From contig CAPOZU010000001.1 of NCBI GenBank assembly GCA_948676835.1, positions 58,633 through 122,632 on the forward strand: a stretch of 64,000 nt of DNA, written 5' to 3'. Source of the DNA: an uncultured Clostridia bacterium (GTDB taxonomy: Bacteria > Bacillota > Clostridia > TANB77 > CAG-508). Numbering within the stretch: position 1 is the stretch's first letter; every line of letters begins with the position of its first letter. Positions 4,054-35,012 of the stretch are shown piece by piece. Position numbers and translations under genes: made by a program. The notes under the pieces were generated by a model that saw only the letters and a program-made list of their open reading frames with translations, did no database searches and was not told the origin of the DNA.

Positions 4054-4082
4054 TTGATTTTTTTATAAAAAAGTTGTATAAT
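4054..4082 (+). promoter_or_regulatory. Sigma-70-type promoter TTGATT-17nt-TATAAT driving GC-rich cassette 1
   Basis: TTGATT at 4054-4059, a 17-nt spacer, TATAAT at 4077-4082, about 55 nt upstream of the ribosome-binding site AAAGGAGA at 4137-4144. Confidence 0.45.
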
Positions 4083-4150
4083 ATTCTTATGTAAACACAT
4101 TTTTCGATAGCAATTTATTCTAAGGGGTATATCCCAAAAGGAGAATGATT

Positions 4151-4435
4151 ATGGCAAGACGGAACGACAAGAAACTCGCAGATCTCATGAACGCAAGAAC
4201 TTTCGTCCAACACGTAGTCGATCAACTGGAAAGATACGGCAAAACCAAACAGCAGAATTCCGCTATGGAAAGCTGTATCCAAATGCTGCCTGCGCTAAGC
4301 ACCCAACCCGCCCTAAGGAGAAGATATCTGGACATGCTCAACCGTGTCATCAAAGATAAATATTCTCCCAACATCGTACTCACTTACTTTAAGCGCGAAG
4401 ACAGTAATCTGCGTGCAAAAATCGCAGAGTTTTAA
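4151..4435 (+). CDS. Hypothetical 95-aa protein, compositionally foreign (about 46% GC); the track ATG at 4145 is an alternative start
   Basis: ATG at 4151 follows the ribosome-binding site AAAGGAGA with a 6-nt gap. Codon usage and GC are very different from the flanking wzm and galE. Protein MARRNDKKLADLMNARTFVQHVVDQLERYGK... has no recognisable family. Confidence 0.5.
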   Translation: MARRNDKKLADLMNARTFVQHVVDQLERYGKTKQQNSAMESCIQMLPALSTQPALRRRYLDMLNRVIKDKYSPNIVLTYFKREDSNLRAKIAEF

Positions 4436-4449
4436 TCAAAACACAATAC

Positions 4450-4485
4450 AAAACGAGGTGTGCCAATCCTGGCATACCTCGTTTT
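4450..4485. terminator. Bidirectional rho-independent terminator (16-bp GC-rich stem, ATCC loop) shared by cassette 1 and convergent galE
   Basis: AAAACGAGGTGTGCCA-atcc-TGGCATACCTCGTTTT with an A-run on one side and a T-run on the other. Confidence 0.7.
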
Positions 4486-4494
4486 GCTATCTTT

Positions 4495-5496
4495 TTATTT
4501 TTCTAAACTTTTTTCATAATTCCAAGAATCCCTACAAATATCTTCTATAGTTTTTTCTGTTTTCCATTTTAATTCTTTTAGTGCTTTTGTGCTATCAGCA
4601 AAATATTCTGGCAAATCTCCTGGTCTTCTATCAACAATTTTATAATTCACTTTTATATTATTTACTTTTTCAAATGTTGTTACAAGTTCTAATACACTAA
4701 CACCTTTTCCTGAACCCAAATTATAAACATTCAGTCCGTCTGGAGCATTTTGCAAAGCTTTTACATGTCCTTTCGCCAAATCTACAACATGTATGTAATC
4801 TCTTACTCCTGTTCCATCTACTGTTGGGTAATCATTTCCAAAAATATTTAAAGTATCTAATTTTCCACTAGCAACTTTCATTACATATGGCATTAAATTA
4901 TTTGGAATCCCATTTGGTTCTTCTCCAATTAATCCTGATTCATGTGCACCAACTGGATTGAAATATCTTAATAAAGTTATATTCCATGAATTATCTGAAA
5001 AGTACAAATCTTCTAATATTTTTTCAATCATAGCTTTTGTTGTTCCATATGGGCTTGTAGTTTTTCCTCTTCCCATAGTTTCAATATATTTTATTTCTCC
5101 ATTATCTCCATATACTGTTGCAGAAGATGAAAAAATAAATTTTCTAACATTATATTTTTGCATAACTTCTAAAAGATTTGTTGTTGATATTAAATTGTTT
5201 GAATAATACATTAATGGCTTTTTTACAGATTCTCCTACTGCCTTATATCCAGCAAAATGAATTACTGCCTCTATATTTTTTTCAATTTCAAATATTTCAT
5301 CAACCTTTGATTTATCAGTTAAATCATATTTATATAATTTAATCTTCTTTCCTGTTATTTTCTCAAGTTTTTCTAAAACCTCTTCCTTACTATTATAAAG
5401 ATTGTCTACAATTATTACATCAAAATTAGAATTTACAAGTTCAACTACTGTATGTGAACCTATAAAGCCTAATCCTCCTGTTACTAATATTTTCAT
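4495..5496 (-). CDS. galE: UDP-glucose 4-epimerase
   Basis: MKILVTGGLGFIGSHTVVEL... Rossmann GxxGxxG motif, a YxxxK catalytic dyad, and a 333-aa length typical of GalE. Confidence 0.85.
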   Translation of the reverse strand: MKILVTGGLGFIGSHTVVELVNSNFDVIIVDNLYNSKEEVLEKLEKITGKKIKLYKYDLTDKSKVDEIFEIEKNIEAVIHFAGYKAVGESVKKPLMYYSNNLISTTNLLEVMQKYNVRKFIFSSSATVYGDNGEIKYIETMGRGKTTSPYGTTKAMIEKILEDLYFSDNSWNITLLRYFNPVGAHESGLIGEEPNGIPNNLMPYVMKVASGKLDTLNIFGNDYPTVDGTGVRDYIHVVDLAKGHVKALQNAPDGLNVYNLGSGKGVSVLELVTTFEKVNNIKVNYKIVDRRPGDLPEYFADSTKALKELKWKTEKTIEDICRDSWNYEKSLEK

Positions 5497-5498
5497 TT

Positions 5499-33197: not shown

Positions 33198-33238
33198 AAA
33201 ATAACCCTCCATTATTTTAAGTAAGCTTTATTTTTTTC

Positions 33239-34090
33239 TTATTTATTATAATTTACACCTTTTACTACAATATCCATATTAAGTACATTCATTGCTGTTA
33301 AGTTTTCTATTTCCTTTATAATTTTCTTTCTTAGTAAAGACATTGTTTCATTAATATTAAATCCAAATTCAATTATAACTTCTATATAAATATACATTCC
33401 ATCATCAAAGCCTTCATGCTTTTTAATAATTGTTCTATATATTTTATTAACACCTTTTGTTTTATCTGCAACACAATCTATTATCTGTTTAAAAACTGTA
33501 TCTGAAATTTTAAAATTTCCCATATAACTAAATGTTGGTCTGATAATTGATTTTTCCGAAACATATGGTGCTTTACCTTTTCCAGTTGATTTAAATATTT
33601 GAAGTGGGTCTAACAAATATCCTGAAAAATCTTTTTTTATTGCAAATGTTGGAACTGGTATTACATGTTTACCTTGGGTAACCCTAACATTTCTTGCAGT
33701 TGCCATTTCTTCTTCTGTTGCCACATCTGTTATATATATAGTTTCTGAAATTAGAGGAAATCCTAAATTTTCTGCAATCCTTCTAACCATTTCATCTGAA
33801 GTTCCTAAAATTAATATACTATCAGGTTTTTTCTTTTTGATTACTGTTTGTACTTCCTTTTTTCTTTGTTCATTTTGAAATAATGCATTTCTTACTGTTT
33901 CAATTTTAGTTGGAGCCTTTTTGGCAGAAATTCCAGCTAATACTTCGTTTCCACTTATCAAAAGCCCATCATCAATTATATAATTAATTCCTCTTTCATT
34001 GGCTACCATCTGTGCTCTATAACTTTTACCAGTTCCTGATGGTCCAACAAAAGCATATACTTTCATTTTGTGTGTATCAAATAATAACAT
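33239..34090 (-). CDS. Hypothetical P-loop NTPase fused to an Asp23/Gls24-like C-terminal domain
   Basis: Walker A GPSGTGKS in the N-terminal part. The C-terminal 120 aa (IRPTFSYMGNFKISDTVFKQII...IEVIIEFGFNINE) resemble the alkaline-shock Asp23 family. Confidence 0.45.
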   Translation of the reverse strand: MLLFDTHKMKVYAFVGPSGTGKSYRAQMVANERGINYIIDDGLLISGNEVLAGISAKKAPTKIETVRNALFQNEQRKKEVQTVIKKKKPDSILILGTSDEMVRRIAENLGFPLISETIYITDVATEEEMATARNVRVTQGKHVIPVPTFAIKKDFSGYLLDPLQIFKSTGKGKAPYVSEKSIIRPTFSYMGNFKISDTVFKQIIDCVADKTKGVNKIYRTIIKKHEGFDDGMYIYIEVIIEFGFNINETMSLLRKKIIKEIENLTAMNVLNMDIVVKGVNYNK

Positions 34091-34179
34091 ATTAATCTCC
34101 TACAAAATTTCTATGATTGATATTATATCAAATAAATACAACTCTATCAAGTAAGTGTTATCTTATTTTAATATAAAAA

Positions 34180-34210
34180 GCTCAAGAGGCTACAATGTAG
34201 CCTCTTGAGC
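34180..34210 (-). terminator. 13-bp-stem GC-rich hairpin terminator downstream of the cassette 4 gene
   Basis: GCTCAAGAGGCTA-caatg-TAGCCTCTTGAGC followed on the minus strand by a T-run. Confidence 0.7.
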
Positions 34211-34241
34211 GAAAGTTGCAAAATATAAATATTTCTGAAAA

Positions 34242-34919
34242 TTAAATGTTGTGTTCCAATATTACCTTAATAATATTTTCATCTGCCTCAAGCGGATTAA
34301 AACTTCTCAAATAATCAATCCCCTTATATACAGCAAATGGATCAACATATGAAAATTGCTTATCCTCAATGAAGTTTACAACTCCAAGTTCTAAAACTTC
34401 TGAAGAAAGAATAACATCAGGATATCTGTCACGCACACATGCATTTAACCTATCCCAATCACTATGCAATTTCTTGGTTTCAGCTTTTCTAAGCTCATCA
34501 ATATCCACATCTTTAGGAGTCTGCCTCATCACCTGCTCAAATTTCTTATCAATATCAAGCAAAGCATATACCATCTCATCTGTAATCAGATGCCACAAAT
34601 ACCCTTTATAAAAAGGATTTGCCTTTTCCTGATTAGACAAACTCTGCCAAAAAGTTAAAACATCCGGCTGGCTGCTTACACCATAGTGCAATCCGTCAGT
34701 ACTTCCGATTTTCTCTTTCTGCTTAATCCTTTCCTCCAAGATTTTATAATCCGGCATATCAGGAGTTTTCAGAGAATTGTACTTTTCGCAGGCACCACTG
34801 ATTCCATACATTCTAAAATGTTTTTTAAGAATATCAGGTGCTTCAATTCCCCGTAAAAAACTCAGATTTTCCCGTGCCTTTGGGGTACATGCTGCAAAAT
34901 GAATATAATAGCCTGGCAT
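34242..34919 (-). CDS. Hypothetical 226-aa protein, compositionally foreign (about 40% GC); possible metal-dependent hydrolase
   Basis: True start MPGYYIHFAACTP at 34919, with AAAGGAG 6 nt upstream. The longer track frame begins inside the -35 box. Motifs YIHFAA and WHLITD (H-x3-D) are reminiscent of the zinc-dependent PLC/P1-nuclease fold, but this is weak. Confidence 0.5.
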   Translation of the reverse strand: MPGYYIHFAACTPKARENLSFLRGIEAPDILKKHFRMYGISGACEKYNSLKTPDMPDYKILEERIKQKEKIGSTDGLHYGVSSQPDVLTFWQSLSNQEKANPFYKGYLWHLITDEMVYALLDIDKKFEQVMRQTPKDVDIDELRKAETKKLHSDWDRLNACVRDRYPDVILSSEVLELGVVNFIEDKQFSYVDPFAVYKGIDYLRSFNPLEADENIIKVILEHNI

Positions 34920-34942
34920 ATAATGCTCCTTTCTTAAACCGC

Positions 34943-35012
34943 GTACTGCAAAAACAGTACTTACAACATTTACGACATCGGATAGTATAACACGCATATA
35001 TTTTAATGTCAA
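34943..35012 (-). promoter_or_regulatory. Consensus promoter TTGACA-17nt-TATACT plus inverted repeat GTACTG-n6-CAGTAC in the leader of the cassette 4 gene
   Basis: -35 at 35007-35012 and -10 at 34984-34989 on the minus strand. The palindrome at 34943-34960 lies between the transcription start and the ribosome-binding site. Confidence 0.45.

Follow-up and report, generated by a model that had tools for sequence, protein, structure and literature searches.

Four GC-rich single-gene units of long standing in the AT-rich genome of a gut Clostridia bacterium

The window (the whole stretch of DNA analysed here, 64,000 nucleotides) comes from a gut Clostridia genome of ~26% GC and contains four unrelated single genes (C1–C4) at ~40–45% GC. 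Each of them is a self-contained monocistronic unit (a ‘cassette’) that occupies an intergenic space flanked by core genes (Table 1). Every unit has a promoter-like site, a strong ribosome-binding site (RBS), and a long hairpin terminator, and three of the four (C1, C3, and C4) have a small 5′UTR hairpin, which in C1 (GGGGTATATCCC) precedes the RBS. The initial annotation had described autonomous GC-rich single-gene units, each with its own signals, and that description holds.

Table 1. Coordinates of the predicted features of the four GC-rich units, as positions in the window
Unit	Feature	Position	Strand	Details
C1	Promoter-like site	4054..4082	+	TTGATT-17-TATAAT; 10/12 matches; kept in L072
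C1	RBS	4137..4143	+	AAAGGAG; 7 nt from ATG 4151
C1	CDS	4145..4435	+	Orphan, 96 aa; GC 0.447; GC3 0.515
C1	Terminator hairpin	4449..4486	+	17 bp; common to convergent galE (4495-5496, minus)
C2	Promoter-like site	28550..28578	+	TTGATT-17-TATACT, TG extended −10; nearly identical in L018
C2	RBS	28606..28613	+	AAAGGAGG; 7 nt before ATG 28621
C2	CDS	28621..28941	+	106 aa, very small family; GC 0.396; GC3 0.355
C2	Terminator hairpin	28979..29010	+	12 bp, 8 GC; common to convergent typA (29022-30845, minus)
C3	Terminator hairpin	30971..31000	-	GCGCCCCGTTATC/GATAACGGGGCGC; 13 bp; compensatory changes across five species
C3	CDS	31023..31721	-	BI-1/YccA-family membrane protein, 232 aa; GC 0.442; GC3 0.494
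C3	5′UTR hairpin	31756..31769	-	GTGAGATATCTCAC; conserved, five species
C3	Promoter-like site	31782..31810	-	TTGTAT-17-TATAAT, TGA extended −10, weak −35; homologous in L047, L020, L021, L156
C4	Terminator hairpin	34180..34210	-	14 bp, 8 GC; compensatory changes in L018
C4	CDS	34242..34919	-	225-aa all-alpha protein, unnamed family; GC 0.36; GC3 ~0.31
C4	5′UTR hairpin	34943..34960	-	GTACTG-TTTTT-GCAGTAC; 6 pairs
C4	Promoter-like site	34984..35012	-	TTGACA-17-TATACT, TG extended −10; 11/12 matches

Sliding GC peaks at 0.40–0.43 (4051–4500, C1), 0.40 (28651–28950, C2), 0.40–0.49 (31051–31800, C3), and 0.36–0.40 (34351–34950, C4), the window background being 0.19–0.31. Computed ORF by ORF, GC3 singles out exactly these 4 of ~58 ORFs (0.31–0.52); all native ORFs lie at 0.07–0.16, and the per-ORF scan finds no GC3 outlier in the window's final 29 kb. 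Outside their reading frames, the units have 33.7% GC, compared with 19.6% for native intergenic DNA. Measuring GC and GC3 along the window, a check that the annotation had proposed, thus confirms its four GC-rich blocks with sharp steps in AT-rich surroundings: the composition of C1–C4 is atypical for the host, as is expected of islands acquired by horizontal gene transfer (HGT).

On re-reading, all four promoter-like sites have the hexamers and exact 17-nt spacers first given for them. Their description as near-consensus is sound as to hexamers and spacing but too generous for the −35 element of C3 (TTGTAT), which matches at only three of six positions and depends on the extended −10 TGATATAAT. 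As a class, such sites barely exceed chance in AT-rich DNA (55 in the window versus 42 ± 5.6 expected); the four are credible because of their position and conservation, not class-level enrichment. The hexamers of C4 are invariant across six species, and conservation of the C3 promoter extends over five. Terminator hairpins were obtained from a scan for C1, C2, and C4 and read off the sequence for C3. One hairpin serves each of the convergent pairs C1/galE and C2/typA and is flanked by A- and T-runs, so that bidirectional termination is plausible; of the earlier statement that two terminators also serve galE and typA, the sharing was found and termination in both directions is predicted at that strength. 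As far as can be predicted from sequence, the hexamers, 17-nt spacing, Shine–Dalgarno sequence, and intrinsic terminator are those of autonomous sigma-A units, and they are kept in orthologues.

The true start of C1 is likely ATG 4151, giving a protein of 94 aa; its cluster representative (P0241) is also 94 aa long. The family comprises only two protein clusters in 5.8e9, and searches with C1 gave no match reaching a Pfam or NCBIfam cut-off and none in PADLOC or PHROGs. C1 was compared with one variant, that of L072 (88% identical), and the substitutions by codon position (9/4/29) form a coding pattern; another hairpin and another gene lie downstream of C1 in L072. C1 may be the youngest or most restricted of the four. 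The C2 family is likewise small (only five representatives in 1.84e9 proteins), and its substitutions rank pos3 > pos1 > pos2, as in real coding genes.

C3 starts at 31721 or 31718 (231 aa from ATG 31718). Its match to Pfam PF01027 (E 4.5e-19; 69.5 bits, cut-off 34.1; residues 54–237 on profile positions 13–204 of 207) is far over the gathering threshold, which bears out the annotation as a BI-1/YccA membrane protein, and its length is typical of the BI-1/YccA/YetJ family (~230 aa). Composition sets it apart: the GC of family genes follows host GC, from 27% to 72%, whereas C3 deviates, as do the relatives closest to it in low-GC contigs (L155 and L159). BI-1/YccA members from 44–50% GC genomes match C3 in composition. 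The family is widespread; outside low-GC contigs, no C3 homologue above 46% identity was found. Foreign origin, for C3 at least, is our best guess.

The C4 product, annotated as a 226-aa orphan, has 225 aa (likely start ATG 34919); its family is indeed without a name. Residues H7, E26, D29, H78, H110, D114, and D154 are invariant in this family and H152 nearly so. C4 gave no Zn_dep_PLPC or S1-P1_nuclease match, and its Pfam and NCBIfam matches are far under the cut-offs (E ~0.1); it may be a metal-dependent hydrolase whose fold resembles that of phospholipase C and P1 nuclease. In the alignment of its 5′UTR hairpin, 91.7% of cells are paired and two pairs have changed on both sides. The 50 genomic loci scored for the family all come from genomes of 23–32% GC, and most copies are GC-enriched: on the Clostridia-type branch of the C4 tree, 36 of the 40 copies have a higher GC3 than their host. 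Genomic context varies between host clades, and close C4 pairs are always syntenic. The enrichment and the clade-specific contexts fit one old transfer with passive decay poorly, a point against the explanation favoured below. A sub-clade consisting mostly of MAGs labelled Bacilli or Tenericutes has host-like GC3, so that the C4 protein does not in itself entail GC-richness. In other host clades (the L030 group and L057/L058), C4 decays at about the native rate, and in L156 its GC3 is already down to 0.19.

Five other species (L047, L018, L020, L021, and L156) have orthologues of C2 and C4 at the corresponding sites, and four of them also have C3, which is missing from L018 only. The common gene order is C4–Asp23like–cmk–plsC–(C3)–typA–(C2)–methyltransferase–glmU, the genes in parentheses being C3 and C2 themselves. 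Across species, GC3 is 0.19–0.32 for C4, 0.38–0.46 for C3, and 0.28–0.36 for C2, with natives at ~0.05–0.12. Homology between species extends to the promoters, UTR hairpins, and terminators, with compensatory changes, which points to a single origin; L018, for example, has an equivalent of the C2 terminator hairpin. For C2, C3, and C4, trees built on amino-acid identity agree with the native tree ((window,L047),L018,(L020,L021)). At 4-fold sites, A<>T divergence from the window is 0.085 in cassettes and 0.082 in natives for L047, 0.250 and 0.257 for L018, and 0.257 and 0.278 for L020. C2, C3, and C4 thus predate the diversification of this genus-level clade (gut Clostridia of ~26% GC), with vertical inheritance ever since.

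Because sister species have C2, C3, and C4 at the same sites, recent import, which the annotation had listed as multi-site acquisition, is rejected for these three. The annotation had also named the finding that would speak against it, i.e. close relatives with the same genes, sites, and composition, and this is what C2, C3, and C4 present. HGT islands are typically absent from close relatives, which have an empty site; here, C2 and C4 are present in five of five species and C3 in four of five. L018 apparently lost C3 by later deletion. The plsC–C3 spacer of L020 and L021 contains an extra inserted ORF, of which L156 retains a mere remnant; given this ORF and the missing C3 of L018, the region both gains and loses genes.

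The annotation's donor of ~45% GC did not appear for C1, C2, or C4: no donor lineage of matching composition was seen among the two clusters of C1, the five representatives of C2, or the 50 loci of C4 (23–32% GC). With no donor found, composition is what suggests foreign origin for these three. Lawrence and Ochman are said to have put forward the amelioration model for horizontally acquired genes. C1–C4 resemble acquired islets and ORFan accessory genes in their sharp steps, their occurrence as single genes in core-gene spacers, their presence/absence differences, and their fast amino-acid evolution. They differ in not being recent (same sites in up to six species, with native-like A<>T divergence), in having no visible donor for three of the four, and in a G/C decay that is 2–5 times slower than native. 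ORFans and foreign genes usually have a higher AT content than the host genome; C1–C4 are, on the contrary, richer in GC.

The G/C of these old genes has faded slowly. At 4-fold sites, the G/C-state memory E is 0.73 in cassettes versus 0.22 in natives between the window and L047, 0.30 versus 0.06 for L018, and 0.30 versus 0.06 for L020, i.e. synonymous G/C decays 2–5 times slower in the cassettes, A<>T divergence being equal. Because native memory ranges from 0.03 to 0.70 gene by gene, this contrast is only moderately significant at the whole-gene level. The neutral upper bounds for memory in the three comparisons are 0.23, 0.08, and 0.07, and had decay been neutral and as fast as in natives from the window–L020 ancestor onwards, the ancestral GC3 would have had to exceed 1. 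A two-state estimate makes S->W change ~4.6 times slower and W->S change ~1.6 times faster in cassettes. Selection, codon selection on the natives, or context-dependent mutation could each cause such slow decay.

The explanation that we favour, and consider probable, is that the four blocks are unrelated accessory genes of long standing whose composition has persisted to an unusual degree. They would have been acquired singly, through illegitimate insertions that took place at different times; C2, C3, and C4 were then inherited vertically, and C3 was apparently deleted later in one species. Slow decay might then reflect selection for G/C or for stable mRNA, near-neutral cassettes beside natives with selected A/T-ending codons, or slower deamination where DNA is GC-rich.

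A possible, clearly less probable, alternative to old accessory genes is that GC-richness is a functional trait and no transfer relic, actively maintained by selection or GC-biased gene conversion in favour of G/C along the entire transcripts. The excess of memory over its neutral bounds at equal A<>T divergence and the impossible ancestral GC3 argue for it, as do the lack of a GC-rich donor for C1, C2, and C4, the raised GC3 of C4 in 36 of 40 Clostridia-type copies with close pairs always syntenic, the GC-enriched non-coding DNA of the units, and their conserved UTR hairpins. In one variant, the mRNAs would be putatively long-lived and RNase-resistant, with which a 5′ hairpin, strong Shine–Dalgarno sequence, GC-rich body, and strong terminator would fit; in another, deliberately rare codons would keep translation low. 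On the other hand, the CDS-only folding z-scores of the four cassettes (−1.6, −1.6, −3.6, and −2.1) overlap those of natives (+1.6 to −2.7), and C4 behaves otherwise elsewhere, decaying at about the native rate in the L030 group and L057/L058, being host-like in the sub-clade labelled Bacilli or Tenericutes, and standing at 0.19 in L156.

It is rather unlikely that the natives are the unusual party, with A/T-ending codons selected genome-wide (e.g. by a minimal tRNA set) and weakly expressed cassettes near-neutral. Synonymous G/C in natives would then disappear faster than by mutation alone, and the cassettes would lie close to a mutational equilibrium that is less extreme. Native 4-fold GC (~0.05) is indeed under that of native intergenic DNA (0.196), the two-state rates agree with this idea, and, by our own arithmetic, 4Nes ~2.5 against G/C would give a neutral GC3 of ~0.39, inside the cassette range. 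The idea nevertheless needs effective selection on codon usage in all native ORFs, even in glycosyltransferases that are probably poorly expressed (GC3 0.07–0.16). Moreover, mutation is AT-biased in bacteria generally according to published polymorphism data (PMC2936529), and the intergenic DNA is AT-rich as well.

Somewhat less likely again is a purely mutational cause, in which GC-rich DNA melts less, its cytosines deaminate less, and an islet ameliorates slowly without selection. This idea, which has been discussed for isochores, agrees with reduced G/C loss at unchanged A<>T transversion divergence and with an effect in UTRs as well as codons. With no donor, it leaves the initial GC-richness of the genes unexplained, and the native-rate decay of C4 in the L030 and L057 clades is not accounted for.

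We give very little credence to a recent, near-simultaneous gain from a donor of ~45% GC resembling Lachnospiraceae or Bacillus, or to a family of selfish minimal cassettes. The sharp steps, the complete units, the matching composition of C3 relatives in 44–50% GC genomes, the missing C3 of L018, and the extra ORF of L020 and L021 would suit a recent gain; the orthologues that five other species have at these sites, diverging as natives do, the ceiling of 46% identity for C3 homologues outside low-GC contigs, and the absence of C1, C2, and C4 families from GC-rich genomes oppose it. As to mobility, the four units have no terminal repeats or motifs in common: nothing of ≥13 bases is shared, and the 9- to 12-mers in common are rich in AT, match by chance, and lie away from the ends. 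No tRNA gene lies within the window, and no recombinase gene is evident in the neighbouring ORFs, which are core genes. Relatives were found neither in viral contigs (searched with C2 and C4) nor in plasmids (C1, C2, and C4), and none of the four had any in PHROGs or PADLOC; none of the usual hallmarks of mobility (tRNA target, repeats, integrase or transposase, phage or plasmid relatives) therefore came up in the searches made. Integron-type and other mobile gene cassettes are similar in being single promoter-proximal ORFs between imperfect inverted repeats, but C1–C4 have their own promoters, their hairpins are ordinary, mutually unrelated terminators, their ends have no common recombination site, and their positions are stable across species.

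An assembly chimera or construct artefact, for which the unusual composition and nothing else speaks, has a practically negligible probability: the exact products and junctions recur across many independent metagenome assemblies, L016 (100% identity, 16,321 bp) and L017 (99.55%, 16.3 kb), which stem from different samples, match the window, dozens of short contigs from other runs cross the block junctions, and five other species have the same architecture.

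A 300-bp sliding scan of the window places four GC peaks on a background of 0.19–0.31, and scoring each long open reading frame (ORF) by codon position returns exactly four outliers in third-position G/C (GC3), with all native ORFs, i.e. those of the remaining window genes, at 0.07–0.16. The GC-rich blocks with stepped composition described in the initial annotation are, on these two counts, real; their single-gene units are called here cassettes C1–C4. First- and second-position GC is raised only slightly in the four ORFs, so the excess is mostly synonymous. Structured RNA or tRNA was rejected as the origin of the blocks, since searches of the window for tRNA genes and Rfam matches were both empty.

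Coordinates of the cassettes, their surroundings, and related loci on contigs of other assemblies (L-numbers)
Feature	Contig	Positions	Strand	Properties
GC peak	window	4051–4500		GC 0.40–0.43
GC peak	window	28651–28950		GC 0.40
GC peak	window	31051–31800		GC 0.40–0.49
GC peak	window	34351–34950		GC 0.36–0.40
C1	window	4145–4435	+	GC3 0.515; start probably ATG 4151, giving 94 aa
C2	window	28621–28941	+	GC3 0.355
C3	window	31023–31721	-	GC3 0.494
C4	window	34242–34919	-	GC3 0.31; start ATG 34919, giving 225 aa
Segment compared with L016 and L017	window	20621–36941		
Cassette flanks	window	1–27800, 35014–36700		
typA	window	29022–30845		
Extra ORF, plsC–C3 spacer	L020	12889–13467	-	GC ~0.31–0.33
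Hairpin remnant of extra ORF	L156	4741–4830		
Upstream neighbour of C4 homologue	L030	2459–3823		GC3-enriched
Upstream neighbour of C4 homologue	L033	6777–8372		GC3-enriched
Upstream neighbour of C4 homologue	L037	6821–8374		GC3-enriched
Upstream neighbour of C4 homologue	L044	6786–8381		GC3-enriched
Upstream neighbour of C4 homologue	L064	251–1528		GC3-enriched
Divergent C4 alleles	L063, L068	~10001–10700		
Tandem C4-family paralogues	L052	2889–3575, 3813–4511		GC3 0.29 and 0.42
Four tandem ORFs	L038	7–1398		GC3 0.64–0.73
C4 homologue	L019	10880–11571		GC3 0.485
Secreted-looking protein	L019	13504–13998		GC3-enriched, 164 aa

The regulatory elements stand largely as first annotated: all four units have a 17-nt promoter spacer, an AAAGGAG(G)-type ribosome-binding site and a long hairpin terminator, and in three of the four the -10 is extended by TG. 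The -35 element of C3 is weak, however, and the starts of C1 and C4 have been revised. Promoter-like matches as a class hardly exceed chance (55 found in the window versus 42 ± 5.6 expected); the four putative promoters draw their support from position and from conservation across other species.

An assembly or construct artefact is ruled out: the exact products of C1, C2, and C3 recur with the same neighbours on numerous contigs of independent metagenomic origin (one labelled mouse gut), and a 114-kb contig of a separate assembly (L016) is 100% identical to the compared segment. The related metagenome-assembled genomes (MAGs) are labelled uncultured Clostridia bacterium, several being from mouse gut. 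A further contig (L017) is 99.55% identical to the same segment; within-species hypervariability of the cassettes was rejected because SNPs separate L016 from L017 at a similar density within them (3.5/kb) and elsewhere (4.6/kb).

A mobile or selfish cassette family, another proposal of the annotation, finds no footing either. No terminal sequences or motifs common to C1–C4 were found, and their proteins are mutually unrelated. No relatives were found in viral contigs for C2 and C4 or in plasmids for C1, C2, and C4, and PHROGs and PADLOC searches with all four gave no matches; a phage, plasmid, or defence origin was rejected on the same searches. C3 encodes a membrane protein of the BI-1/YccA family (PF01027, 69.5 bits), C1 and C2 received no family assignment, and no functional link among the four was seen. 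Co-occurrence does hold for C2, C3, and C4, but only within this clade. C1 is an orphan (two clusters in 5.8e9 proteins), the C2 family is represented only five times among 1.84e9 proteins, and no member of either family was found outside this neighbourhood. C1–C4 thus do not qualify as a cassette family.

Recent multi-site acquisition predicts that close relatives lack the genes. A genome-collection scan and exact-protein look-ups yielded five further species (L047, L018, L020, L021, and L156) that share the gene order C4, Asp23-like, cmk, plsC, [C3], typA, [C2, convergent], methyltransferase, glmU. Native GC3 is ~0.05–0.12 across these species, while the cassette orthologues keep elevated values. 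At 4-fold degenerate sites, moreover, A<>T transversion divergence equals that of the natives, so the cassettes match the species splits in age and have received the same mutational input. Orthologues at the same sites with the same elevated GC3 are the very observation that the annotation had named as refuting its reading.

GC3 of cassette orthologues in six species
Cassette	Window	L047	L018	L020	L021	L156
C4	0.31	0.32	0.32	0.28	0.28	0.19
C3	0.49	0.46	absent	0.40	0.38	0.38
C2	0.36	0.36	0.33	0.33	0.29	0.28

A<>T transversion divergence and memory of G/C state (E) at 4-fold sites
Pair	A<>T, cassettes	A<>T, natives	E, natives	E, cassettes	E, neutral upper bound
Window–L047	0.085	0.082	0.22	0.73	0.23
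Window–L018	0.250	0.257	0.06	0.30	0.08
Window–L020	0.257	0.278	0.06	0.30	0.07

Several lines of evidence point to one ancestral insertion each for C2, C3, and C4, and a single event for the four units is not borne out. Five species share a homologous C3 promoter, 5'UTR hairpin, ribosome-binding site, and terminator, and the terminator stem shows compensatory changes, so C3 was inserted only once; L018 has a 120-bp plsC–typA spacer without C3, for which a deletion is the simplest explanation. The promoter hexamers of C4 do not vary across six species, and pairing in its 5'UTR hairpin is retained through two double changes. Amino-acid identity patterns of all three proteins agree with the native tree, and cassette substitutions follow the coding pattern (third position > first > second). 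Between the window and L020, protein identity is 52% for C2 and 64% for C4 versus 82–99% for native genes; protein evolution in the cassettes is fast. As to age, C1 is an exception in the data only; a variant 88% identical (L072) has the same upstream gene, another terminator, and another downstream gene.

In L020 and L021 the plsC–typA spacer contains a further inserted ORF with its own GC-rich hairpin, of which L156 retains only the hairpin remnant and the window no trace. Single genes do come and go in these spacers, and the plsC–C3 spacer is a hotspot of such turnover. On the flanks, as read from ORF lists and Pfam labels on L016, the cassettes adjoin a large locus for surface polysaccharide (rml-type genes, glycosyltransferases, ABC transporter, galE, and glmU), and on the opposite side a small operon comprising a signal-peptidase-like gene together with genes for small membrane proteins; C1 sits at a point where the polysaccharide locus varies between strains.

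The composition of the cassettes has decayed more slowly than neutral amelioration by the native process would allow. With E measuring the memory of G/C-versus-A/T state at 4-fold sites, neutral, non-stationary amelioration bounds the cassette value at native E x 0.25/(f(1 - f)), and the cassettes exceed this bound in all three comparisons. Their 4-fold G/C is lost 2–5 times more slowly than that of natives at equal A<>T divergence, and had they decayed at the native rate from the window–L020 ancestor on, ancestral GC3 would have had to exceed 1. Three points temper this contrast: native E is heterogeneous among genes (0.03 to 0.70), other host clades give a smaller decay difference or none, and some decay does occur, as C4 in L156 has fallen to the lowest GC3 of its orthologues.

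Other yardsticks were set aside. Parsimony polarisation of G/C losses and gains was discarded, since 153 A/T-to-G/C against 13 G/C-to-A/T changes in natives is impossible at equilibrium; the method is biased under fast G/C turnover, and a rough neutral expectation reproduces the cassette counts. Alignable intergenic DNA is not neutral: its A<>T difference is 0.019 against 0.082 at 4-fold sites, a far stronger conservation. The L068 locus, considered as a C4 pseudogene that could show whether GC outlasts function, was rejected because it proved to be a divergent allele (46% identity) and no clean pseudogene. Conservation of G/C-ending codon sites across the C4 family is overdispersed (z = 9.1), a value confounded by shared ancestry.

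A relic of a donor of ~45% GC is disfavoured because no donors are seen and decay does not run at the native rate. For three of the four families, no GC-rich relatives were found in very large databases. All 50 scored C4-family loci lie in MAGs with flank GC 0.23–0.32, and at most of them gene GC exceeds that of the flanks, by up to +0.20. One sub-clade of the C4 tree, drawn largely from MAGs with a Bacilli or Tenericutes label, has host-like GC3; outside it, 36/40 copies lie at least 0.08 above the host median. Every close C4-family pair is syntenic, and that tree shows no pair of high identity in differing contexts that would suggest recent transfer. BI-1, the only widespread family among the four, normally has gene GC following that of the host (27% to 72%); C3 departs from this pattern, as do the relatives closest to it in other low-GC contigs (GC3 0.51 in L155 and 0.27 in L159).

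In the best-supported account, the four blocks are old accessory genes, independent of one another and inherited vertically; each is a transcription unit in its own right, and their atypical composition is unusually persistent. They work like, and are classed with, ordinary genomic islets or accessory ORFans; unlike a recent genomic island, they are present in relatives, have no visible donor, and lack mobility hallmarks. A sharp GC step with a full promoter-to-terminator unit mimics fresh horizontal transfer, and its occurrence in old, stable, vertical genes counsels caution. The high interest assigned initially rested on recency, mobility, or artefact, none of which holds; slow decay, donor absence, and GC excess across most C4-family hosts together are a real, testable puzzle.

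Three causes of the persistence all fit the data, which do not separate them. The first is selection or biased conversion favouring G/C across the transcript. Non-coding DNA of the units is 33.7% GC versus 19.6% in native intergenic DNA. The units also have traits that go with mRNA stability in Firmicutes, namely a 5' hairpin together with a Shine-Dalgarno sequence and a terminator that are both strong; coding-level RNA structure of the cassettes is, however, not distinctive. Terminator hairpins probably account for much of the whole-transcript folding z-scores (-3.4 to -5.1), since codon-shuffle z-scores of the coding sequences alone do not differ from those of natives. The second cause is genome-wide selection for A/T-ending codons in natives, the cassettes being nearly neutral, and the third is lower deamination in GC-rich DNA. 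We propose only tentatively, as a rather doubtful specific form of the first, that in one low-GC gut Clostridia branch (synonymous sites ~5–10% G/C) the C4 family, C2 family, a BI-1 subfamily, and C1—three without a GC-rich donor—may have been held at GC3 0.3–0.5 over species- to genus-scale times, with whole-unit G/C under selection (mRNA stability or rare-codon throttling) or biased gene conversion. If so, the loci offer a clean within-genome contrast for what sets bacterial GC content, and the genes a natural experiment on selection of base composition itself; if codon selection on natives or context-dependent mutation acts instead, they calibrate the unreliability of amelioration clocks in very AT-rich genomes.

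Several neighbouring and related loci have features of their own. Synonymous sites are unusually conserved, in an off-tree pattern, in the typA genes of the window, L047, L018, L020, and L021 (4-fold identity 0.91 for window–L020 and 0.77 for window–L018; neighbouring genes 0.57–0.72), which suggests inter-species recombination or strong codon constraint. At column 19 of the C4-family alignment (NRSF motif; loci L023–L065, genome GC3 0.1–0.2), the rare codon CGG occurs in 16 of the 18 Arg-bearing lineages; either a constraint on the nucleotides of this particular site or shared ancestry could explain this. Proteins neighbouring the L063 and L068 alleles are ~88% identical and the alleles only 46%, the N-terminal part in L068 being unrecognisable; this points to allelic replacement or very rapid divergence. 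The tandem paralogues in L052 are 55% identical, on a contig with few ORFs and median GC3 near 0.31. In another host clade, the GC3-enriched (0.29–0.35) upstream neighbour of the C4 homologue (425–531 aa, N-terminal CxxC zinc-ribbon-like motif, acidic tail) may act together with C4-family proteins. The C4 homologue of L019, an unrelated 27.5% GC genome, adjoins mutS2 and lies directly upstream of a HEPN and nucleotidyltransferase pair. At the end of contig L038 (median GC3 0.19), the four tandem ORFs encode lysine/glutamate-rich proteins of 75–115 aa with KKEK-type repeats.
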